Below are positions 1,413 through 18,177 of a DNA stretch of 20,655 nucleotides, one piece after another (positions within the stretch are counted from its first letter, which is position 1; every line of letters starts with the position of its first letter). The position numbers and the translations under genes were made by a program. The stretch is from a virus (Duplodnaviria; Heunggongvirae; Uroviricota; Caudoviricetes). The notes beneath the pieces were generated by a model. The model searched no databases and was not told where the DNA came from. It was given only the letters and a program-made list of their open reading frames with translations. The stretch lies in the IMG/VR virus record IMGVR_UViG_2740892214_000006, one strand, 5' to 3'.

Positions 1413-2434
1413 CCGTCCAGAAGAAGACATTTTCACTGGCTGGTATGTCGCCAAAATACAGCAATATGACAGCAAAGTCAGGCATTAATACAGCAGATAC
1501 AAGCAAAGTTTATCATTTGCTGGTGGTAGGAGCGGATGCCTTAACTATGTCAGAAATTACGGTCGATGGTGTTAGCGTTGAGAAGGTCAGCGGCTGCGCC
1601 AGAGAATTTCTGGTCGTAGATCACCTGTTCTGCTCGTGTAGTGACTCCACAAAAACATTCGTCCACGTGCGTGACGTTAACGAAATGAGCGCGATGTATT
1701 GTGCATCTGGTGCTTCCAATAGTGAGTTTTCGGAGTCCATAAAAAAGAGCTTGCCGTTATGCGGCAACACGGTTTATGGTTATAAGGCACCTCATAAAAC
1801 GGGTGCCGGGATTAGGACCCCGCAGGCAATCGAGGCGATACATGACGCGCCAGCGTCTTTTTTTGTATCGGCGCACACGCACACCTTATCAATGGTGGGC
1901 TGTATGGGGCTGACTTCGGTCAGGCTGGTTTCCTTGATTGCCAGTAGTCCTAACCCTGTACAGTCCACCGCCAGCGAGCTTAGGACCTCCGGCGGTGGCT
2001 ATAAACCATCAATCAAGGAGGCTGCCACATGCTGGCTACTACCCCTACCCAAAAACCGCAATTTATCTGGATTATCGCCGCAGTTCGCCGCGATTGCCCG
2101 ACAATTACCGCCAAAATTCATCATATTGCTGCCGAGTCTGAACGCGATGCTCGCCGTTCTCTGGTGCGCGATCACGTCTGCTTTTTTGCTGGTCGTATCC
2201 GCATGGAGGTGGCACATGATTAAAACCTACGATGTGCATATGGATCCCCTCGAACGCACAAGCCAGATCATCACACTGACAGAAGTGATTAACGACATTC
2301 TGGTGAGCAACTCTCCCTCACGAGACGAAAGGCTGAAGGCGTTACTCGCGATATTGGATCTCGCCGTTCGTGACGTTCATTTCCTGCTGGAAGGTGGACA
2401 AATGCCAGTAAAAACGGGGGCAACCAATGAATAA
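1406..2434 (+). CDS. hypothetical protein; long ORF of uncertain structure (N-terminal ~150 aa protein-like; last 72 codons from ATG 2216 may be a separate gene)
   Basis: ATG 1406 has SD GGAGG (1394-1398) and is coupled to the upstream gene. Frame stays open 1029 nt. Translation of about 1900-2215 looks off-frame-like (L/S/P-rich), and ATG 2216 has its own SD GGAGGTGG. Confidence 0.4.
2029..2223 (+). CDS. small hypothetical protein (64 aa), alternative frame embedded in the long ORF
   Basis: Strong SD AAGGAGG (2015-2021) 7 nt before ATG 2029; stops in this frame at 1981 and 2002 just upstream. Stop TAA 2221-2223 overlaps ATG 2216 (ATGATTAA). Charged, protein-like composition. Confidence 0.35.
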   Translation: MLATTPTQKPQFIWIIAAVRRDCPTITAKIHHIAAESERDARRSLVRDHVCFFAGRIRMEVAHD

Positions 2435-8662: not shown

Positions 8663-9124
8663 ATGGAACTAAAATTTATTGATAACCCTGTGCGATTACA
8701 GGCCTTTCTTAACGAGCCAGGCAATACCGAAAATATTGTTGAGCCGGGGCACACGTACTACATCAAGCCTGATGCGGTATATCTCGGCATCTACGAAGGA
8801 TTAGTGCTGGCTGGCGTTCATGAAGTGCGTAACTTCTGGCATAGCGTTGTTGAATGCCATGCGGTGTACGACCCCGGATTCCGTGGTGAATATGCACTGC
8901 AAGGACATCGATTATTCTGCAAATGGCTTCTCGAAAACTCACCATTCCTTAACAGCATCACTATGGTTCCTGACACCACGAAATACGGACGGGCAATTAT
9001 CCGTTTGCTTGGCGCTACCCGTGTTGGTCACCTTGATGATGCTTATATCAGATGTGGTAAACCCGTCGGCGTAACGCTTTATCAGTTAACTCGGCAACAA
9101 TATAAGGAATTCAGCGAATGTTAA
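8663..9124 (+). CDS. hypothetical protein (153 aa); positional analogue of P22 gp14
   Basis: First gene of a coupled four-gene chain; stop overlaps the next start (ATGTTAA). Function inferred only from position. Confidence 0.7.
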   Translation: MELKFIDNPVRLQAFLNEPGNTENIVEPGHTYYIKPDAVYLGIYEGLVLAGVHEVRNFWHSVVECHAVYDPGFRGEYALQGHRLFCKWLLENSPFLNSITMVPDTTKYGRAIIRLLGATRVGHLDDAYIRCGKPVGVTLYQLTRQQYKEFSEC

Positions 9125-9795
9125 TTACCCATATAGCTCATAAACATCTCAATCGTGCCGTATACGAAAAAGGCGGTGATGGTGGTGCCTCTAAAGCTCA
9201 GGCGAAGGCCCAGCAGCAGGCAATTGATTTGCAGCGCGAGCAGTGGAATACGGTGATGAATAATCTCAAGCCGTATGCAGAAGTCGGATTGCCTGCTTTA
9301 CAACAACTGCAAGGACTGATGACTCTGGAAGGGCAGAATAAAGCCGCGAATGATTTCTTTGGTTCTGGTTTATATAAAACACAGGCAGATCAGGCCCGTT
9401 ATCAGAACCTTGTCTCAGCAGAAGCTACCGGGGGGCTTGGCTCAACAGCTACCAGTAACCAGTTATCTTCCATTGCGCCCATGCTTTATAACAATTGGCT
9501 CAGTGGGCAAATGCAAAATTATGGAAACCTGCTAAATGTCGGGATGAATGCGGCATCAGGGCAGGCAACAGCAGGGCAAAACTACGCCAATAATACCGGG
9601 CAACTCTTGCAGGGGCTTGGCGCTATTCGTGCAGGTCAGGCGCAGCAGCCATCCAGTCTTGCGCGTGGTATTGGTGGGGCGGCATCAGGCGCTTTAGCGG
9701 GTGCGCAACTTGGTTCCGTTGTTCCGGGTATAGGTAATGTCGCCGGGGCTATTGGTGGTGGGCTTATTGGTCTTGTTGGGGGGCTTGGATTCTAA
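9118..9795 (+). CDS. putative virion internal/ejection protein (P22 gp7-like by size, order and composition)
   Basis: 225 aa, with Q/N/G/A-rich low-complexity and a Gly-rich hydrophobic C-terminus (GIGGAASGALAGAQLGSVVPGIGNVAGAIGGGLIGLVGGLGF). SD AAGGA upstream; TAATG overlap with the next gene. Confidence 0.75.
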   Translation: MLITHIAHKHLNRAVYEKGGDGGASKAQAKAQQQAIDLQREQWNTVMNNLKPYAEVGLPALQQLQGLMTLEGQNKAANDFFGSGLYKTQADQARYQNLVSAEATGGLGSTATSNQLSSIAPMLYNNWLSGQMQNYGNLLNVGMNAASGQATAGQNYANNTGQLLQGLGAIRAGQAQQPSSLARGIGGAASGALAGAQLGSVVPGIGNVAGAIGGGLIGLVGGLGF

Positions 9796-11093
9796 TGGCG
9801 ACATGGCAACTTGGCGGGCTGCCTAGCATGGCACCGCAAAATGATAATGCTCCTCGTTCTTCCGTTCTTCAGCCTGTGCAGTATCAGCAGCAGCCAAACG
9901 TAGGTTTAATGGCGCTACAGGGGCTAAGAGGCGTTGCTGAGATTAATCAGCAGGCACGTCAACAACAGCGTAAAGCAGAGTTTCAGAAAGCATATGCCGG
10001 GGCTTTTGAGTCTGGAGACAGAAACAAAATGCGCAGTCTTATTTCTGAGTATCCAGAAGAATTTGAAAGCGTTCAGAAAGGGATGGGCTTTATTGATGAC
10101 GACCAGAGAAATTCTATTGGTCATCTTGCGACTAGTGCTCAAATCGCATCTTCGCTCGGAACTGGGGCATTTGGAAAATTCATAGCAGATAACGAAGATG
10201 AAATGCGTCGCTTGGGAATTTCTCCTGAGTCTGTTGCCGAAATGCATGTTAATGATCCACAGGGATTCCAGCGGCTTGCTGGTAGTATGGCACTGTTTTC
10301 TCTCGGTCATGAGAAGTATTTCGATATCAAAGATCAAATGGAAGGTCGTCGACTTGAGCAAGGGCGACTGGATGAAAGTATGCGTCAGGCTGACATGGAG
10401 AACGCGAGAGGATGGGCAAATATCCAGAACGCTCAACTAGACAGGGCTCAGCGAGCACAAATTCACTCAGATGAGATGGGATTGAAGCTAATGGAGCTGG
10501 GGCAAAAAGGTAAGCCGTCAGCAGACTTAATTAAGGGATTAAATTCTGACATTACCAATTTTGGCAAAAATTATAACTCTGTCAGAGCGGCGGCAAACTC
10601 TCTGCAAGCCCTTAGCAAGGTAAATACTGGCGCTGCCCAACTTGGGATTATCTTCAACTACATGAAATCTCTTGACCCGCAGTCAGTCGTTCGTGAAGGC
10701 GAACAGGTTCAGGTAATGCGGTCTGATGGCATATGGGGACAAATCAAAGGATACATAGACCAGCTTAATGCTGGAAACGGCCTGTCGCAGGAGGCAAAGG
10801 ATAACATTGTTAACGCCGCAAAAATCAACGCCAATGCTATGGGGCAGCAGTTTAACCAGCAGGTTGACGAGTATCTCGATACATATGGAGAAACTATTCC
10901 TCAGGGGCTAAGAAAAAGCCTTGAAAGAAGGAAAGCGAAGCTATTTGACGATGTTTCCGGGCAGCCTACATCACAGGCTGGCACTGGACAGGCAAAAGCG
11001 GCAACCGGAGGAATATCAGAAGGCGCAACGGCAACCAACCCTAAAACTGGTCAGAAAATCATTTACAGGAACGGAAAATGGCAGCAAATGTAA
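9795..11093 (+). CDS. putative virion internal/ejection protein (P22 gp20-like by size, order and composition)
   Basis: 432 aa, Q-rich N-terminus, coupled to flanking genes by overlapping start/stop; composition typical of podovirus ejection proteins. Confidence 0.8.
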   Translation: MATWQLGGLPSMAPQNDNAPRSSVLQPVQYQQQPNVGLMALQGLRGVAEINQQARQQQRKAEFQKAYAGAFESGDRNKMRSLISEYPEEFESVQKGMGFIDDDQRNSIGHLATSAQIASSLGTGAFGKFIADNEDEMRRLGISPESVAEMHVNDPQGFQRLAGSMALFSLGHEKYFDIKDQMEGRRLEQGRLDESMRQADMENARGWANIQNAQLDRAQRAQIHSDEMGLKLMELGQKGKPSADLIKGLNSDITNFGKNYNSVRAAANSLQALSKVNTGAAQLGIIFNYMKSLDPQSVVREGEQVQVMRSDGIWGQIKGYIDQLNAGNGLSQEAKDNIVNAAKINANAMGQQFNQQVDEYLDTYGETIPQGLRKSLERRKAKLFDDVSGQPTSQAGTGQAKAATGGISEGATATNPKTGQKIIYRNGKWQQM

Positions 11094-13195
11094 TCTTACC
11101 GGAAGGTTTTGTGCTCGATGAACAACCTGATAACTCACAGTTTCCTGATAGTTCACAGCTTCCTGATGGTTTTGTGCTTGATGCCCAACCAGAACAGCAG
11201 CAATCACCTTTGGTTTCACCAGAGGAAAATTCCAGACAGGAAAATGTTGTTAATAATGCTAACGGTTTCGACCGTTTTATGTATGGCGTTCTCAGTGGAT
11301 TGATGGATGTTGGTAAAGGTGTTGGCCTGTTTCAGGATATGACACCAGAAGAGCAAGCCGCAATTCAGTCTCTACAGCAGAAGTTAGCGGCAAAACCATC
11401 AACCGCACAAGATGTTGGTGAGTTCGTTGGACAAGCAGCGCCATTTGTTAGTGGTGGTGGGATTATTTCTCAGGTTCCCAAAGGGGCGGCAAGACTGGCT
11501 GCCGCCGCAGGGCTTGGTGCTGGAGAAGGGGCTATTGTAGCCAATGGAACAAATAGCGATGTTGCTTCCGGCGCTGCTATTGGCGCTGTGGCTGGCCCTG
11601 TAGCCGAACTTGCTGGCCCTGCAATTAATAAAATAGCTGGGAAATTAACCAAGAAGAATGTTTCTTCGATTCCAGATATTGAGGGGATTACTCCTGCCGA
11701 AGAGAAAATTCGTAAGTTATCTGCACAAGGCAACCCAAATCTTGCCTCTTCGCTTGAAGGGCTAGATCTAAAACCTCAGAAAGAAATTGTTGAGGCTGCA
11801 AATAGGCTTCATGTTGATTCAGTTCTTCCTTCTCATTTATCAGGAAATGAGCAATACCAAGCTGTAGAGCAAGCCCTAAAGTCACGGACAGGATCAGCGT
11901 TAAAAGCTCAAGAAGATAAAGCAATAAGCGAATTAGCCTCTAGTGCTGGCAAGATAATCGATGATGTTGCTGGTGCGCCAGATGCGTTAGCTATGAGCGA
12001 AAAATATATTTATCAGATAAATAGTAGAATGGAAGCACTAAAAAACCGTAGTGATCAGTTATATAAACGTGTTGATTCCGCTCTATCACCAAGAACAAAA
12101 GTCGAAGCAAATAACACAAGCACTATGCTGGAAAAAATCGCTGATGATTTAGGAGGGTGGGATAATCTTGACCCAATAGAAAAGCGAGTTTTTACAGCAA
12201 TAAACCCCGGCCCAGATAGCATCCTAACGTATGCAAATTTAAACAGGCAAAGGCGTTTAGTTGGTGATGCCCTAAATAAAAAGCAGGGGCCATACAAAGA
12301 TGCTGATAAAGAAGCGCTATCAAGACTATATGGAGCTTTAGCTGAAGACCAAAAATCTGTCTTATCCAATACTGGATACTTGCGAGATTTCGAAGTCGCA
12401 CAACGCCTTGTAGCTATGAGAAAAAACTTAGAAAGGCAAATGGTAAATCTTCGCGGGAAAACACTTAATGGGGATATAGCGTATAAAGTAACGAATTCTC
12501 TTCAATCTATGGCAAAAGGTGATGCGAGAGGGTTTCGTGAGATTATGCAAAATACTCCATCAAGAACATTGCGAAGGGAGCTAGTAGGAACAGCATTAAG
12601 AGATATACTTTCCTCTGGGAAGCGTGGGGCCGACTTTAATCCATCTGGCTTTGCAGATTGGTGGCAAAACTTGCAACACAGTGGACAGCTAAAGACTTTG
12701 GCTGAACATTTGCCAAAAGAAACAATGAGCGGACTATATGATGTATACAAAGTTGCCAGAGCAATAAAAAATGCTAAAGCGCATGAAATATCTACTGGTA
12801 AGCTGAATGAGTTTGTAAACAGATTTAATCGGGTAACAGCTCCATACGAACTAGCAGCAAAACACATTCAAAAAATAGGCACGATGGTAGGCGCTCATTT
12901 TGGATCGCTTGGAGCCATTGCTGGGGCTGATATTGGAGCAAGATTGGCGAGTAAAGCTCGATTAGCTGGTGGAGCAGGGGCGGCTGATGCTGCGGATAAA
13001 TTAATTGCCTCGCCAGCCTTCCAGAGCGCAGTAAAAAATCTACACGGAAAAGCGCCTGGGCACATTGTTGATTCACGTATCAGGCGCTCCCCTCAATGGA
13101 AGAGTTTTTTTAACTCTCTTCCTGAACAGGAAAAACGGACCATCGCCAGACTGGGCATCATTACTTGGCTATCTAATGATCCAGATAATGACTAG
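11078..13195 (+). CDS. putative virion internal/ejection protein (P22 gp16-like by size, order and composition)
   Basis: 705 aa; SD AGGAACGG upstream, start overlaps previous gene by 16 nt. N-terminal tandem repeat LPEGFVLDEQP / LPDGFVLDAQP; Gly/Ala-rich blocks flank a lower-GC central part. Confidence 0.8.
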   Translation: MAANVILPEGFVLDEQPDNSQFPDSSQLPDGFVLDAQPEQQQSPLVSPEENSRQENVVNNANGFDRFMYGVLSGLMDVGKGVGLFQDMTPEEQAAIQSLQQKLAAKPSTAQDVGEFVGQAAPFVSGGGIISQVPKGAARLAAAAGLGAGEGAIVANGTNSDVASGAAIGAVAGPVAELAGPAINKIAGKLTKKNVSSIPDIEGITPAEEKIRKLSAQGNPNLASSLEGLDLKPQKEIVEAANRLHVDSVLPSHLSGNEQYQAVEQALKSRTGSALKAQEDKAISELASSAGKIIDDVAGAPDALAMSEKYIYQINSRMEALKNRSDQLYKRVDSALSPRTKVEANNTSTMLEKIADDLGGWDNLDPIEKRVFTAINPGPDSILTYANLNRQRRLVGDALNKKQGPYKDADKEALSRLYGALAEDQKSVLSNTGYLRDFEVAQRLVAMRKNLERQMVNLRGKTLNGDIAYKVTNSLQSMAKGDARGFREIMQNTPSRTLRRELVGTALRDILSSGKRGADFNPSGFADWWQNLQHSGQLKTLAEHLPKETMSGLYDVYKVARAIKNAKAHEISTGKLNEFVNRFNRVTAPYELAAKHIQKIGTMVGAHFGSLGAIAGADIGARLASKARLAGGAGAADAADKLIASPAFQSAVKNLHGKAPGHIVDSRIRRSPQWKSFFNSLPEQEKRTIARLGIITWLSNDPDND

Positions 13196-13214
13196 TGAAT
13201 GGCCACGGATGGCC

Positions 13215-13640
13215 TCAATCTTTATTCTTTGAAATAGAGTCATTGATCTTTTCGAAACACCAATGAAATCCACAAAAGAGAGCTACACCAATATAACAAT
13301 ACAAAACTATCAACCACCTTTCAGTGTCCGAAGGGTAAAAAACATCAATTACATAAGCAACACCAATTGGTATTAATGCTAGTAATAACATCGACACAGG
13401 ACGTACAAACTTCTGAACTATATCAATTTTATAGAACCACAAGGCGGTATGTTTAATGATATAAGTAAAGATGGCTGCGCCAATAATGGCAAAAAACACC
13501 ATCGATAAAGTCGGGTATAACTTTGCGACAATTAAACCCAACAAAATAATTATAACTGCCTGCCCCCTCACACCAACCCTCCCTTTAGCTTTGTTTAGAA
13601 TGGCAATCATCATATATCCAAGACATGGCATTTGGTACAT
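13215..13640 (-). CDS. small integral membrane protein (4 predicted TM helices); candidate superinfection-exclusion protein
   Basis: 141-aa ORF convergent with the ejection-protein operon; four hydrophobic segments; markedly AT-rich (moron-like); occupies the position of sieA in P22-type genomes. Weak RBS, start uncertain. Confidence 0.6.
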   Translation of the reverse strand: MYQMPCLGYMMIAILNKAKGRVGVRGQAVIIILLGLIVAKLYPTLSMVFFAIIGAAIFTYIIKHTALWFYKIDIVQKFVRPVSMLLLALIPIGVAYVIDVFYPSDTERWLIVLYCYIGVALFCGFHWCFEKINDSISKNKD

Positions 13641-13764
13641 AGCTTGGGTCGGGATTTCAAATCCGCTCCCAGTTGATGGGGCCGTTACAGTACGCGCATA
13701 TCCGCTTTATGTGAAACAGGAAGATTTTTCTGATATCACTGCCACAGCAAAACACCAATTTCGA

Positions 13765-13780
13765 GACAAGTACGCGCGCG
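13765..13780. repeat. GACAAGTACGCGCGCG motif, copy 1
   Basis: Exact 16-mer shared with copies at 14050 and 15333; alternating CG palindromic core. Confidence 0.6.
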
Positions 13781-13788
13781 AGGGGTAT

Positions 13789-13812
13789 CAGTTGCAAAAA
13801 GTTTTGCAACTG
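13789..13812. promoter_or_regulatory. operator-like perfect palindrome CAGTTGCAAAA-AG-TTTTGCAACTG
   Basis: 11-bp inverted arms with a 2-nt spacer, in the 450-bp intergenic region upstream of the membrane-protein gene. Confidence 0.4.
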
Positions 13813-14049
13813 CGTCCGACCAGTACGCACACAATGGAGGGAAGTACCATAAAACTGTTCTCTACATAAGACAGAGTGGTGGTGATGTGTTGATTATCGG
13901 CGTATATGCGCACAGGACGCGCTATGACAATGTTTTATGCGGGTACACCAATCACATGTATCTGATGTGATAAATCGCGTTACATGACATCTCTGTTGTG
14001 CTGGTGGTTATCACGACTTTCTGAATCTGGCCTTTGCCTGATATTTTGC

Positions 14050-14065
14050 GACAAGTACGCGCGCG
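14050..14065. repeat. GACAAGTACGCGCGCG motif, copy 2
   Basis: Exact 16-mer; extended palindrome TACGCGCGCGTA; lies about 30 nt beyond the 3' end of the small - strand gene. Confidence 0.6.
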
Positions 14066-14093
14066 TAGCATCGACAGCATACACATTGGATAT

Positions 14094-14315
14094 TCATTTT
14101 GTGACCAATGCGATAAGTAGCGGGATAAGAATTGATAAAATCAACAGGCCGATGATCCACTTTTGATTTTCACTGGCCTTATCTCTATTTTCATCAATCT
14201 TATCAATAATTCGACGCTCCAAGCCGTGCATATCACCGCGAATGGCAATCATCTCATTGCGAACATCCGAGAAGTGGTTGGCTTGATGTTCAATGTGTGG
14301 CGTTCTGCCTTTCAT
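14094..14315 (-). CDS. small tail-anchored membrane protein (73 aa)
   Basis: Hydrophilic charged N-terminal 50 aa followed by one C-terminal TM helix (WIIGLLILSILIPLLIALV); AGGA upstream of ATG. Confidence 0.5.
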   Translation of the reverse strand: MKGRTPHIEHQANHFSDVRNEMIAIRGDMHGLERRIIDKIDENRDKASENQKWIIGLLILSILIPLLIALVTK

Positions 14316-14394
14316 TCCTGATCCTCACCTATCGTCACCACCTGCTGGTGTATAAAGGTATTGGCCCAAGCAGCTTTCCAATGGGCACTCATGT

Positions 14395-14850
14395 TTATAC
14401 GCTGACCTTACAATCAATCACCGCTTTTAACTTTTCAGCATTGCTTCCCTGACGCTTCCACGCGCTGTAAATATCTTTATCCCACGCTTTACCAGCTTTT
14501 GTTTGATAGCCTGCTTCATTGATCCGTTCAGCTATCACACGCCCATTATCAAATCCCTGTTGGATGGTATCGGCAATGATCTTTATAACTGCCGTTTCGT
14601 TATATGGTTTTGGTGGGATGTTCGGCTTTCCGGCAATAAGCGACGCAGCGGCTTTTTCCATGCGCTCCACCAGCCCAAGCATTCGTGAATCAATAGACTT
14701 TTCCGGCTGCCCCAGCTTCATGCGAATCGCATCAACAAGCCAGGAGGTTTTATCTCCTCCAGAAGCGAGAACAGACCGATTAAACTCATCCTGCAATTCA
14801 GATGGGATGCGGAACGCGATCAGATTAGATTTGCTCATTGCAAAGACCAT
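14395..14850 (-). CDS. RHH-domain (Arc/Mnt-like) repressor-like protein with C-terminal extension (151 aa)
   Basis: N-terminus has an RHH signature (beta-strand LIAFRIPSEL followed by helices); divergent from the PerC-like gene across an operator-like region. Start could be ATG 14850 or 14838. Confidence 0.65.
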   Translation of the reverse strand: MVFAMSKSNLIAFRIPSELQDEFNRSVLASGGDKTSWLVDAIRMKLGQPEKSIDSRMLGLVERMEKAAASLIAGKPNIPPKPYNETAVIKIIADTIQQGFDNGRVIAERINEAGYQTKAGKAWDKDIYSAWKRQGSNAEKLKAVIDCKVSV

Positions 14851-14867
14851 ATCAGTGAGTAATATCC

Positions 14868-14899
14868 ATACAGTATACCACTGTATAACACTGTTATAC
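14868..14899. promoter_or_regulatory. operator-like repeats in a divergent promoter region
   Basis: Inverted repeat ATACAGT (14868-14874) / ACTGTAT (14880-14886), followed by direct repeats ACTGTATAAC / ACTGTTATAC (14880-14899), between divergent genes. Confidence 0.4.
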
Positions 14900-15002
14900 G
14901 CTCAAATATCAGCCAGAAAATAACGGACCAATCACAAAGCTATCGCTGTGTTGTTGGTTCAGAGCTGGGCTGTGTTGGTTCAAAATAATCTGAGAGGCAG
15001 AA

Positions 15003-15284
15003 ATGATAAGGGACAGGAAAGCTGAAGAGCTGGAGTCAAAAGGGCTATACCGGAGAGCTGCCGCACGATGGATGGAAGTCATGCTGTTATGCACCGAGGA
15101 CGATGATCGGGAATGGATAAAGCGCCGCCGTGAAACGTGTCTGGAGAACGTGAAGCGCCCGCCCGTGAAGGTTGAGGACTTTGGCGACCTGCATAAAGCT
15201 GTTACCGAAACGCAACACCGCATGGGGATAGCGCAACCGAACGGTAACGCCTTCCGGTTAAATGGCGGCAAGAGGCAAAGGTAG
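15003..15284 (+). CDS. PerC-family-like transcriptional regulator (93 aa)
   Basis: SD GAGAGG 5 nt before ATG 15003. Motif EELESKGLYRRAAARWMEVM...DREWIKRRRETCL matches my recollection of the PerC/Pch family signature. Confidence 0.65.
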   Translation: MIRDRKAEELESKGLYRRAAARWMEVMLLCTEDDDREWIKRRRETCLENVKRPPVKVEDFGDLHKAVTETQHRMGIAQPNGNAFRLNGGKRQR

Positions 15285-15288
15285 ACCA

Positions 15289-15310
15289 CCAGAGGGAAAT
15301 CATCCTCTGG
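15289..15310 (+). terminator. possible weak terminator hairpin
   Basis: 7-bp stem CCAGAGG / CCTCTGG with 8-nt loop, 5 nt after the PerC-like stop; the downstream T-tract is poor. Confidence 0.3.
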
Positions 15311-15332
15311 CTGGCGGTTTCTGGTATTTCGG

Positions 15333-15350
15333 GACAAGTACGCGCGCGCG
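15333..15350. repeat. GACAAGTACGCGCGCG(CG) motif, copy 3
   Basis: Same motif with one extra CG, giving the palindrome TACGCGCGCGCGTA; about 50 nt after the PerC-like stop. Confidence 0.6.
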
Positions 15351-15581
15351 TAGCACCCAATCGGTGAGGAAATAGCGGCGACCTGAATGGTCAAAATCAC
15401 AACGCAGCTATCCCCGTAAGCAGCGCTTAACGGAATAGCAGTAACCTGAATCCAGTGGGGAGGGGGTAGTCAAATCTCTACAGCCCTGACTATCCGGGAC
15501 TGCCCGCCCCATCGTTTTTTTATACCCGCGAAAAATGAAATTTAATCCGGGCGTGTTTCATCCTTCCAGAGGGTATGACGT

Positions 15582-17013: not shown

Positions 17014-18177
17014 TTACACATCATTAGTACCTTCCTTATTTTTTGACTGGGACAAATTTGGGACCGATGGGTTCAGGATCGAGTCTATTTGCCGTGCGTG
17101 TTCGGTAAGGTGATTAGGTGCAAGGTGAGCATATCGACGAACCATTTCGATAGACTCCCAGCCTCCCATTTCCTGTAACACTGACAACGGGACTCCGGCT
17201 TGAACCAGCCAACTTGCCCAGGTGTGTCTCAAGTCGTGAAATCTGAAATCATCAATACCAGCCCGTCTCAGCGCCGCTTTCCAGGCTGTGTTTGCGTCAT
17301 ACCGCATCTTCCTTACTGTTGGCGCTTTCGTTCCGTCTGGTTTGGTACAGCTTTCCTTGTACACAAATACCCAACGGTGATGATTCCCGATTTGTTTTTT
17401 CAATACGCGACATGCAGTATCATTCAGCGCAACGCCAATTGCGCGGTTTGATTTACTCTCTTCCGGGTTTATCCATGCCACCCGGCGCTGCATATCTATT
17501 TGTTGCCATTCAAGGTTGATGATGTTCGAGCGTCTTAAGCCTGTTGCCAGTGCAAATTCAACAACAGACTTTAATGGCTCCGGACATTCATCAATCAGCC
17601 TTTGTGCTTCATGGGGCTCCAGCCAGCGGATCCGTTTATTCTTTGGTTGAGGCACTTTAATAATTGGTGCCTTATCCAGCATTTTCCATTCACGCTCTGC
17701 GGCTCTTAGTAGGGCCTTTATAAATGAAAGATGCGTAGCCTTCGTTGCAACGGACGCCGGTTTTGGCGTGTATTCTGGAACAGGTTTCCCTTTTTTTCTG
17801 CATGCTTCTGCCCTGAGTTTCCAGTTTTCCTCATGACGCCGGTTCGTCATTTTCTGCATTGCTGAATAAATTTTTGATTCAGTAATGTCTCTTAGTTGCA
17901 TTCCTGCGAAATGTTGAAGCCAGAATCCGATCCGGCTTTTGTCATCGTCCAGTGATTTTTTATGTGCTTTCTCTTCAAGCCACCTGACACACGCTTCCTC
18001 GAACGTTATATCAGGTATTTCACCAAGTTTGCTGACCCGCCATGCTTCAGCCTTTAGCTTGTCATGGAGTTCTGTCGCCTGCCTTTTGTCCTTTGTTCCA
18101 AGAGACTGTTTAAATCTTTTACCGTTCGGCAATGTGAAACTGGCGTACCATATTTCACCTCTGCGGAAGAGTGACAT
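17014..18177 (-). CDS. int: tyrosine integrase, P22-type
   Basis: 387 aa; N-terminus [28 protein letters not shown] matches my recollection of P22 Int; catalytic motifs [10 protein letters not shown] and RRYAHL; strong SD GAGGAAAG upstream. Confidence 0.95.

Follow-up and report, generated by a model that had tools for sequence, protein, structure and literature searches.

Repeats in an EcCIMP1-like phage-inducible island of Escherichia coli resemble segments of helper small-terminase genes and are candidate pac-type packaging sites

The window analysed here, namely the whole 20,655-nt stretch of IMG/VR record IMGVR_UViG_2740892214_000006, is an EcCIMP1-like phage-inducible chromosomal island (PICI) of E. 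coli. It is 94.5–99.8% identical in DNA to EcCIMP1 over the shared parts, carries the antirepressor, the ash/isrK/C4 region, a primase and PerC, holds no capsid or terminase genes, and belongs to the tRNA-Thr/yag locus; the primase type differs between the two islands (DUF5906 versus TOPRIM/DUF927). The integrase of the island lies outside the window, to its left. Kapi1, a P22-like phage, induces and transduces EcCIMP1, a PICI that has neither terminase nor capsid genes (PMC11773190). The EcCIMP1 authors gave the packaging mechanism as unknown, with no known redirection genes and a packaging module unlike that of characterised PICIs, reported that transduction by Kapi1 was extremely low, and suspected in their 2025 study that several helpers are used (PMC11773190).

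The central part of the window encodes homologues of the P22 head morphogenesis gene 14 and of the genes for three ejection proteins, 7, 20 and 16 (Table 1), with tblastn matches to HK620 gp7 and gp20 in the same region, and these homologues tie the island to P22-like helpers. The minus-strand gene for a 141-aa membrane protein that follows appears, from gene order, to occupy the position of sieA after gene 16 in P22. The adjoining region 13640–14094 contains 1-nt indels between strains and the remnant of a DUF4222 pseudogene, and is therefore regarded as decaying DNA.

A repeated motif is located in and beyond this region. The exact 16-mer GACAAGTACGCGCGCG was found, as the initial annotation had claimed, at 13765–13780, 14050–14065 and 15333–15348, all on the plus strand; three copies were reached in 0/100 shuffles (mean 0.17, maximum 1), and the window has no further match on either strand at up to three mismatches. 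The conserved unit is longer than the 16-mer, being the asymmetric and non-palindromic 21-mer TTYGNGACAAGTACGCGCGCG that starts at 13760, 14045 and 15328, with every copy of this type on the plus strand. Between copy 1 and a degenerate fourth copy, which is nearer the consensus in locus L001 (GACCAGTACGCACGCG), there is a near-perfect hairpin, the loop of which varies and the arms of which are mostly kept among strains, L001 and L004 carrying substitutions. The gene-relative positions given earlier hold, as copy 1 is found 125 nt upstream from the 141-aa gene, and copies 2 and 3 follow the stops of a minus-strand 73-aa gene and of perC by 28 and 49 nt, respectively. The flanking letters fit less regularly: the upstream TTT(C/T)G is present in copies 1 and 3 (TTTCGA and TTTCGG) and is shifted by one base in copy 2 (TTTTGC), and the TAGCA described after copies 2 and 3 follows copy 2, whereas in copy 3 it comes only after an extra CG. 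Similarly, the alternating-CG palindrome of the core is perfect over 12 and 14 nt in copies 2 (TACGCGCGCGTA, 14056–14067) and 3 (TACGCGCGCGCGTA, 15339–15352) but missing from copy 1 (TACGCGCGCGAG), and the motif is followed in other islands by GGGT (L029) or CGAC (L344); dyad symmetry is therefore not a conserved property.

Table 1. Features of the window discussed in the text
Feature	Position	Strand	Basis
P22-gene-3-family terS fragment, codons about 87–124, no own reading frame	1554–1667	−	gp3-family HMM E=1e-14
22-mer at P22 pac-site position, GAATGTTTTTGTGGAGTCACTA	1639–1660	−	21/22 to live P0038-type terS allele; 0/100 shuffles
Homologues of P22 genes 14, 7, 20 and 16 (head morphogenesis and three ejection proteins)	8663–13195	+	PHROG 651, 598, 770; Pfam PF16928
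141-aa membrane protein gene	13215–13640	−	weak Bax1-I match, below Pfam cut-off
P22-gene-3-type pac-like unit, GGAAGATTTTTCTGATATCACTGC, 19 nt upstream of copy 1	13718–13741	+	18/21 to gene 3 allele
Copy 1, Sf6-type terS-derived unit, TTCGAGACAAGTACGCGCGCG	13760–13780	+	exact match and alignment to Sf6 gene 1
Hairpin, CAGTTGCAAAA-AG-TTTTGCAACTG	13789–13812		read off sequence
Degenerate fourth copy, GACCAGTACGCACACA	13818–13833	+	sequence inspection
Copy 2, TTTGCGACAAGTACGCGCGCG	14045–14065	+	exact match and alignment to Sf6 terS
Copy 3, TTCGGGACAAGTACGCGCGCGCG, one extra CG	15328–15350	+	exact match and alignment to Sf6 terS

An identical 21-mer stands between unalignable flanks in five unrelated contexts, namely the three window copies, L029 and L344; among close relatives, the conservation of the motif is just modestly above that of its flanks. 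In a check for REP/BIME-type dispersal, all motif matches at up to three mismatches in 164 kb of E. coli loci fell inside the island, and the median number of places per genome with the 2.4-kb region was one. A 16-mer scan of genome contigs gave, among the matches listed, single chance matches in high-GC genomes and was uninformative for Enterobacteria. The motif reads FRDKYAR in the frame of a 132-aa ORF, yet this ORF has 1-nt indels among strains and its database homologues are short local ORFs or fusions only, so it is considered a pseudogene-like relic and no gene. A known RNA or tRNA at the copies was likewise rejected, as Rfam gives only isrK and C4, distant at 1787–1975, and no tRNA is present; with regard to a possible C4 RNA target, the window holds no complement of the motif.

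The motif corresponds to a piece of a helper phage gene. In the 39-kb Kapi1 genome, the sole match to TTYGNGACAAGTACGCG is TTCGCGACAAGTACGCG, a 17/17 match inside the small-terminase gene terS (shuffles 0/100), and this segment is also found within the terS of Sf6 and HK620. The window copies align to nt 163–183 of Sf6 terS with local alignment scores of 31–33 against shuffle maxima of 25–28 (0/500); copy 1 scores 31 against nt 165–183 of Sf6 gene 1 (shuffle mean 16.7, maximum 26; 0/500) and copy 2 scores 33 (0/500). Further upstream, GCAAAACACCAA before copy 1 resembles the terS codons AKHED, and CTGGCTGGC, 17 nt before copy 3, is identical to the RWLA codons found in some Sf6-type terS alleles. 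The tail differs, because island units end in CGCGCG and all of the 80 Sf6-type terS genes examined have AAGG; no helper terS with the exact GCGCGCG version was present among these 80 genes, the IMG/VR matches or the metagenome matches, and DKYARA with the island's codons is encoded, in the IMG/VR and metagenome matches, only by non-enteric terS genes. Direct DNA search of the region or the 70-nt unit against phage genomes gave nothing useful because the shared piece is too short. On these alignments, we take the repeats to be short pieces of an Sf6/HK620/Kapi1-type terS surviving as non-coding DNA in a terminase-less satellite. The pac sites of P22-like phages are located inside terS (PMC8022706), and Sf6 TerS recognises a specific pac site (PMC7672466). 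A homology of the P22 pac codons with FRDKYA of Sf6 was tried and rejected, as BLASTP gave E=5.5 and the hhalign profile-profile alignment of the two TerS families, at a probability of 1.4%, took another register in which FRDKYA is not opposite the P22 pac codons.

Additionally, the island holds pieces of a second terS family, the P22-gene-3 type, so that its units come from at least two families: the Sf6 type, with three copies and one decayed copy, and the P22-gene-3 type, with two. The first of the latter is a 114-nt minus-strand fragment that aligns in DNA to nt 260–374 of a P0038-type gene 3, matches Pfam GP3_package (E=1.3e-4) and the PHROG 606 terS family (1e-7), shares about 90% identity with P22 gene 3 across 102 nt, and is present in EcCIMP1, H10407 and L082 as well. 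A 22-mer within it coincides in position with the P22 pac site, which is annotated at gene 3 nt 268–289. The second is the unit close to copy 1, which matches nt 266–287 of a P0066-type gene 3 allele (EGFSDITT), that is, the mapped P22 pac position; GAAGATTTNTCTGA has one match in the window, and any match arose in 3/100 shuffles. Hypervariability within the gp3 family falls exactly on the pac codons, as would be expected if the site and its specificity co-vary. Related islands swap terS fragments within one slot: L344 has an Sf6-type unit in the leader slot that holds the gene 3 fragment in the window, and the Sf6-type unit of L029, L340 and L353 directly adjoins a gene-3-like stretch that corresponds to what immediately precedes P22 pac, the L029 junction placing the Sf6-type unit where the gene 3 pac would begin.

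Based on these findings, we propose, with moderate confidence, that the repeats are putative terS-derived, pac-type recognition sites that would recruit the helper terminase. This reading is suggested first by EcCIMP1, which has the same three exact copies and is moved by Kapi1, whose only match is in terS, and by the alignment of each copy to Sf6 terS above all shuffles. It also draws on the second terS family, represented by the gene 3 fragment with its pac-position 22-mer and by the 18/21 unit beside copy 1, on the exchange of terS fragments within a single slot, and on the identity of the 21-mer in five contexts with unalignable flanks. Properties of a pac site are found in the motif, in that the sequence lies within or derives from the helper terS region (Kapi1, Sf6 and HK620; 21/22 for the gene 3 fragment) and the site is asymmetric with a defined orientation. 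All copies are co-oriented, and in the P22-like prophage L071, which carries copies 1 and 2, they are also co-oriented with its own terS, 13 kb away.

In the proposed mechanism, induction of a P22-like helper would let the island excise and replicate, the helper TerS ring could recognise the asymmetric, co-oriented units as pac-type sites, and TerL would cut nearby, so that the island DNA could be headful-packaged into helper capsids. TerS binding, cleavage and packaging initiation at the repeats are steps that we infer from the sequence. With units from at least two terS families, the island could use helpers of differing packaging specificity, and DNA ends made at such sites could account for the clustering of mosaic junctions and deletions at the copies. 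Several points weigh against the pac reading: the very low transduction of EcCIMP1 by Kapi1 is contrary to the prediction for three good pac sites; the units carry the CGCGCG tail in place of AAGG, and their exact sequence was found in no enterobacterial terS among the IMG/VR or metagenome matches; FRDKYA does not stand opposite the P22 pac codons in the profile-profile alignment; the motif is just modestly better conserved than its flanks among close relatives; and L071, a genuine P22-like prophage, carries copies 1 and 2 with no obvious phage need for them. More tentatively, and as one joint reading that we rate as possible rather than probable, EcCIMP1-type satellites may possess a set of interchangeable pac modules that were excised from terS genes belonging to at least two, perhaps three, terminase families, and may hence be multi-helper parasites of P22-like phages that need neither a terminase nor a redirection protein, with the 21-mer being the Sf6/HK620/Kapi1 pac and terminase cuts driving the turnover of the adjacent defence cassettes.

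An alternative, which we regard as unlikely, is that the units are inert scars, namely terminase-cut helper ends next to pac that were joined into the island by illegitimate recombination, were later duplicated and have no present function. The gene 3 fragment indeed resembles the left end of a first headful, as it starts about 8 nt ahead of the pac-position 22-mer and extends downstream from there, the gene-3-like stretch of L029 stops exactly where the pac 22-mer would start, the region around copies 1 and 2 is decaying, and the degenerate copy is proof that copies can decay. However, neutral decay should hit the core as well as the flanks, and the same 21-mer is exact in five contexts with flanks beyond alignment; moreover, whichever of the two or three terS families a piece comes from, it contains the pac-region segment, and the pieces adjoin each other. 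Since capture of any pac-bearing fragment would immediately give a functional site, scarring accounts for the origin of the units better than for their maintenance.

Recombination had been offered in the initial annotation as another role, and the junctions of the island give it some substance. Homology with six relatives (L002, L004, L005, L006, L009 and L010) ends at 14074, 9 nt past copy 2, and the cargo beyond varies, being Abi, ImmA/IrrE, an HTH gene or hypothetical genes; deletion hybrids with the left flank of copy 1 and the right flank of copy 2 occur in L007 and L313, and P0035 has a hybrid that joins copy 1 to the degenerate copy. Copy 3 lies within a segment, 15297–15457, that is missing or replaced in some relatives. 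Nevertheless, it is improbable that the repeats are primarily recombination sites bounding exchangeable cassettes, used by a site-specific recombinase or for short-homology crossover, because six other mosaic breakpoints or ranges are away from the copies (13509, 13568, 14428–14440, 14985, 15296 and 15458), no dedicated recombinase is tied to the motif and the right-hand cassette boundary is without a copy. Deletions between 16-nt direct repeats require no special system, and recombination would leave the identity with the helper terS and the other terS fragments unexplained. Instead, the loss of homology and the deletion hybrids seen at the copies may be a side effect of the pac-type function.

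Still less probable is an action as RNA, in which antisense transcripts of the terS-like pieces would pair with helper terS mRNA and reduce helper packaging. It could be argued that the gene 3 fragment is antisense to the plus-strand leader of the island, which also encodes the isrK and C4 regulatory RNAs, that it has the high identity to P22 gene 3 given above, and that copies 1 and 2 lie among minus-strand genes, the transcripts of which would carry the complement of the terS segment. Against this, copy 3 follows a plus-strand gene and would be transcribed in sense, the Sf6-type copies all have one DNA orientation whatever the local transcription, and pairing with helper terS mRNA would span only 17–18 nt. 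That the copies represent a shared cis-acting site is supported as a general notion, and a partition function is indicated by nothing in the data; that the site is an operator common to the RHH-type or PerC-like regulators encoded nearby is highly improbable, for although copies 2 and 3 contain perfect palindromes and the copies are intergenic, near the PerC gene and another whose product has an RHH-like N-terminus, neither copy 1 nor the copies of L029 and L344 show the palindrome, no sigma-70-like promoter or intrinsic-terminator-like site was found at any copy and two copies are at gene 3′ ends, the PerC-bearing islands L008 and L011 lack the motif, the L071 locus, searchable to about 750 nt beyond copy 2, has the motif with no PerC homologue detected, and the TGTTGGTTCA repeats directly upstream of perC are a better operator or iteron candidate.

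The repeats thus provide a concrete candidate for how EcCIMP1-type DNA is chosen for packaging, namely terS-derived recognition sites of more than one specificity; the initial annotation, made from the letters alone, could not see this relation of the motif to a helper phage terS. If the pac reading is true, pac-type and multi-specific mimicry of packaging sites would join the known cos-type cases, the location of the Sf6-type pac site would be hinted at, and orphan terS fragments could be a simple signature for satellites that current tools score as defective. The packaging cuts may then also be linked to the shuffling of the anti-phage cargo adjoining the sites.

Compared with known systems, one island copy stands at the border of a slot whose cargo is variable and defence-like, as integron attC or cassette-boundary sites do; unlike these, the repeats have no attC-like inverted-repeat architecture and no linked integron integrase, and only the left slot edge has a copy. 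P22 pac is a 22-bp asymmetric site in the terS gene 3, of which the island holds a 21/22 copy of the equivalent 22-mer and the 18/21 unit, and the Sf6-type repeats likewise correspond to a terS-internal segment. Unlike P22 pac, the island units are outside any terS, non-coding and in several copies, in an element without terminase, and their pac role is putative; unlike phage terS, the Sf6-type unit has the CGCGCG tail. Chromosomes and plasmids contain pseudo-pac sites, sequences beyond the phage genome that look like pac and that TerS recognises in generalised transduction (PMC8494744). Such sites are chance resemblances used at low frequency, whereas the island units are evidently derived from terS, with a 21-mer identical in several unrelated contexts. 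In EcCICFT073-type PICIs, Rpp redirects TerS of the helper towards the cos site of the PICI (cited in PMC11773190). The island resembles these E. coli PICIs in its integrase, AlpA, primase and PerC-type genes, but is without Rpp or a cos module. Satellites that carry the packaging site of their helper include P4, with a P2-type cos, and SaPIbov5, with the helper cos, the cos being present once. The island may follow the same logic, in which a satellite without the matching terminase specificity is packaged via the recognition sequence of its helper; unlike those cos sites, its putative sites would be pac-type, repeated, taken from two or three terS families and apparently exchanged in a dedicated slot.

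Judged by its sequence, the thrice-repeated motif is a piece of a helper small-terminase gene (terS), as its in-frame reading is (F)RDKYAR and the exact 16-mer is present in many unrelated viral contigs within PF20901 (Sf6-type small terminase) genes encoding ...(F/I)RDKYARA.... In the P22-like phages Sf6 and HK620, TTTCGCGACAAGTACGCGAAGG lies at nt 165-187 of the terS genes (gene 1 and gene 3, respectively), and in the 39-kb genome of Kapi1, the helper of the related island EcCIMP1, the sole match to TTYGNGACAAGTACGCG is in terS, with zero matches in shuffles. Aligned individually to Sf6 terS, the window copies scored 31-33, where the highest values among shuffles were 25-28 (0/500), and the similarity reaches slightly beyond the unit in copy 1 (GCAAAACACCAA-TTTCGA versus terS GCAAAGCATGAGGATTTTCGC, AKH..FR codons) and copy 3 (RWLA codons, CTGGCTGGC, 17 nt upstream). 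These stretches are no live gene, because their frames are broken and single-base indels occur between strains. None of the 80 Sf6-type terS genes that were compared has the CGCGCG tail of the island units, and the search turned up no enteric terS carrying exactly the island's version.

The three exact same-orientation copies of GACAAGTACGCGCGCG noticed in the initial annotation were borne out, with no further match at ≤3 mismatches in the window; such a number was reached in 0/100 dinucleotide shuffles, and all three copies also occur in EcCIMP1. The perfect palindrome ascribed to them holds in copies 2 and 3 only, whereas copy 1 continues AGG, and alignment of the copies gave a conserved unit that is longer than the 16-mer and asymmetric, TTYGNGACAAGTACGCGCGCG. 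In other islands the 21-mer is followed by GGGT or CGAC instead of the AGG after copy 1, a hairpin lies between copy 1 and a decayed fourth copy, and conservation of the motif among close relatives is only modestly above that of its flanks.

Features of the island and related loci (window positions unless a contig is named)
Feature	Position	Strand	Remark
P22-gene-3-type terS fragment, 114 nt	1554-1667	-	DNA alignment to nt 260-374 of a gene 3 allele
pac-position 22-mer	1639-1660	-	21/22 identity to live P0038-type allele
isrK and C4 antisense RNA genes	1787-1975		
Homologues of P22 genes 14, 7, 20, 16	8663-13195		ejection proteins
DUF4222-like C-terminal remnant	13641-13760		upstream of copy 1; resembles intact copy 1230-1412
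Copy 1	13765	+	
Decayed fourth copy	13818		
Copy 2	14050	+	
Variable cargo slot	14066-14440		right of copy 2; equivalents in L002, L004, L005, L006, L009, L010, L181
Iteron-like repeats TGTTGGTTCA	14950-14986; L001 17730-17865; L002 8790-8935		directly upstream of perC
Copy 3	15333	+	
Second tyrosine integrase	17014-18177	-	just past island right end
HRNYRMAYAAGNMKTDSINRKAKELLDNGKIAARVAEFEQM stretch	L004 3967-4092		non-coding; also after copy 2 in L002, L005, L006, L009, L010, L181

The region was matched in ~670 of 5426 complete E. coli genomes, mostly at one place per genome, and lies in an island that carries genes for an integrase, an AlpA-like HTH protein, an AntA/B antirepressor, DUF4222, an 'ash' ORF overlapping the isrK and C4 RNAs, a P4-type primase, PerC and pRiA4b-ORF3. 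Across shared parts the window is 94.5-99.8% identical to EcCIMP1 of E. coli MP1, an experimentally verified PICI that is excised only upon induction of the P22-like Kapi1 and transduced by it at a very low rate, for which the authors could not identify capsid or terminase genes, gave the packaging mechanism as unknown and considered several helpers probable (PMC11773190). The satellite in the window is without capsid, portal or terminase genes. The homologues of P22 genes 14, 7, 20 and 16 are followed, up to 13640, by a (-) membrane protein at the sieA position, and possibly helper virions receive ejection proteins made by the satellite, or these proteins serve in superinfection exclusion. 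In the window, perC is preceded by two direct TGTTGGTTCA copies, with a ~97-106 nt deletion at 14985/14986, while in relatives the direct copies number four and are joined by two or three inverted ones (TGAACCAAC); the repeats are a candidate operator or replication origin. The second tyrosine integrase shows that another element is integrated next to the island, and this flank varies between strains (pao/yag genes, MarR-Vat island or dinD in others).

Besides the Sf6-type units, a profile built from 120 homologues of P22 gp3, the TerS of that phage, matched at 1678-1556 (-) with E=1e-14. In P22 itself, the annotated pac site spans nt 268-289 of gene 3, and the hypervariability of the gp3 family falls exactly on the pac-position codons. 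This gene 3 fragment is common to EcCIMP1, ETEC H10407 and the locus L082, and is not in Kapi1 or HK620; GGAAGATTTTTCTGATATCAC, 19 nt upstream of copy 1, agrees at 18/21 positions with this pac-position segment as found in a different gene 3 allele. The 130 nt that follow copy 2 in most relatives weakly match only a third terS family (phrog_51, E=0.022, the single PHROG match of HRNYRMAYAAGNMKTDSINRKAKELLDNGKIAARVAEFEQM, a stretch not in the window). In the metagenome contig L344 an Sf6-type unit lies in the leader, directly against sequence of window 1666-1745, the flank of the gene 3 fragment, and in three further loci (L029, L340, L353) the unit directly adjoins sequence similar to nt 247-268 of gene 3, the part immediately 5' of the P22 pac site; therefore, one place is filled by differing terS pieces in related islands.

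The repeats could be inert scars where pac-proximal phage DNA ends were joined, which accounts well for their origin but leaves identical 21-mers in five unrelated contexts unexplained, and we regard this as unlikely. Homology of the window to six relatives stops at 14074, 9 nt past copy 2, beyond which the cargo varies (Abi, ImmA/IrrE, HTH or hypothetical genes), two loci (L007, L313) join the copy 1 left flank to the copy 2 right flank, and in the database ORF P0035 copy 1 is fused with the decayed copy; the remaining mosaic breakpoints lie away from the copies, and a dedicated cassette recombination site seems improbable. In the window the slot right of copy 2 encodes a 73-aa membrane protein; its equivalents hold a gene of the Abi family, a pair of genes for ImmA/IrrE peptidase, one small HTH gene or two genes of hypothetical products, and the slot looks like a defence or accessory hotspot. 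Another database ORF, P0022, fuses the DUF4222 remnant and the intact copy, which implies that some genome has lost all the sequence that separates the two. A real P22-like prophage, L071 (same IMG/VR contig as L146), with a portal gene, gp10 99% identical to that of HK620 and an Sf6-type terS, carries the membrane-protein gene and copies 1 and 2 directly after gene 16 (12416-13262), 13 kb from its own terS, which suggests recombination between helper phages and islands.

Within the 'ash family' ORF (1406-2434), the gene 3 fragment has the DUF4222 gene on one side and the isrK/C4 RNAs on the other. A leader transcript of the + strand would carry it in antisense to the terS mRNA of the helper. 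Regulation of that mRNA by antisense terS-like pieces is attractive for this fragment, itself antisense to the isrK/C4 leader, but misfits the single orientation that all Sf6-type copies share in the DNA, and we consider it quite improbable. As isrK and C4 lie inside it, the 'ash' ORF is probably, at least partly, a translation of RNA genes and the terS fragment. By eye, a C4 loop (ccttgattg) looks complementary to caatcaagg in the RBS region (~2011-2019) of a small ORF starting at 2029. The RHH or PerC operator suggested in the initial annotation is very improbable.

The units are related in sequence to terS, and we propose that they are pac-type sites for helper TerS. In Sf6, the pac site reportedly lies where gene 1 codes for the DNA-binding domain (Leavitt et al. 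2013). In P22-like phages, a pac site inside terS starts headful packaging (PMC8022706; PMC7672466). Helper TerS would recognize the island's units, its partner TerL would then cut near them and island concatemers would be packaged; units from several terS families may serve several helpers, and DNA ends made at the units could promote the deletions and cassette exchange seen. A caveat to the pac-type function is the very inefficient transduction of EcCIMP1 by Kapi1, and homology between the P22 pac codons and FRDKYA was not supported by hhalign. The missing CGCGCG tail in the terS genes compared, the presence of copies 1 and 2 in the prophage L071 far from its terS, and the modest conservation of the motif relative to its flanks are further caveats.

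In the searchable literature, neither a PICI that uses orphan terS fragments as its pac sites nor a packaging determinant for EcCIMP1 was found described. Satellites that mimic cos packaging sites are known, as in P4/P2 and SaPIbov5. Chromosomes and plasmids are known to contain pseudo-pac sites (PMC8494744).
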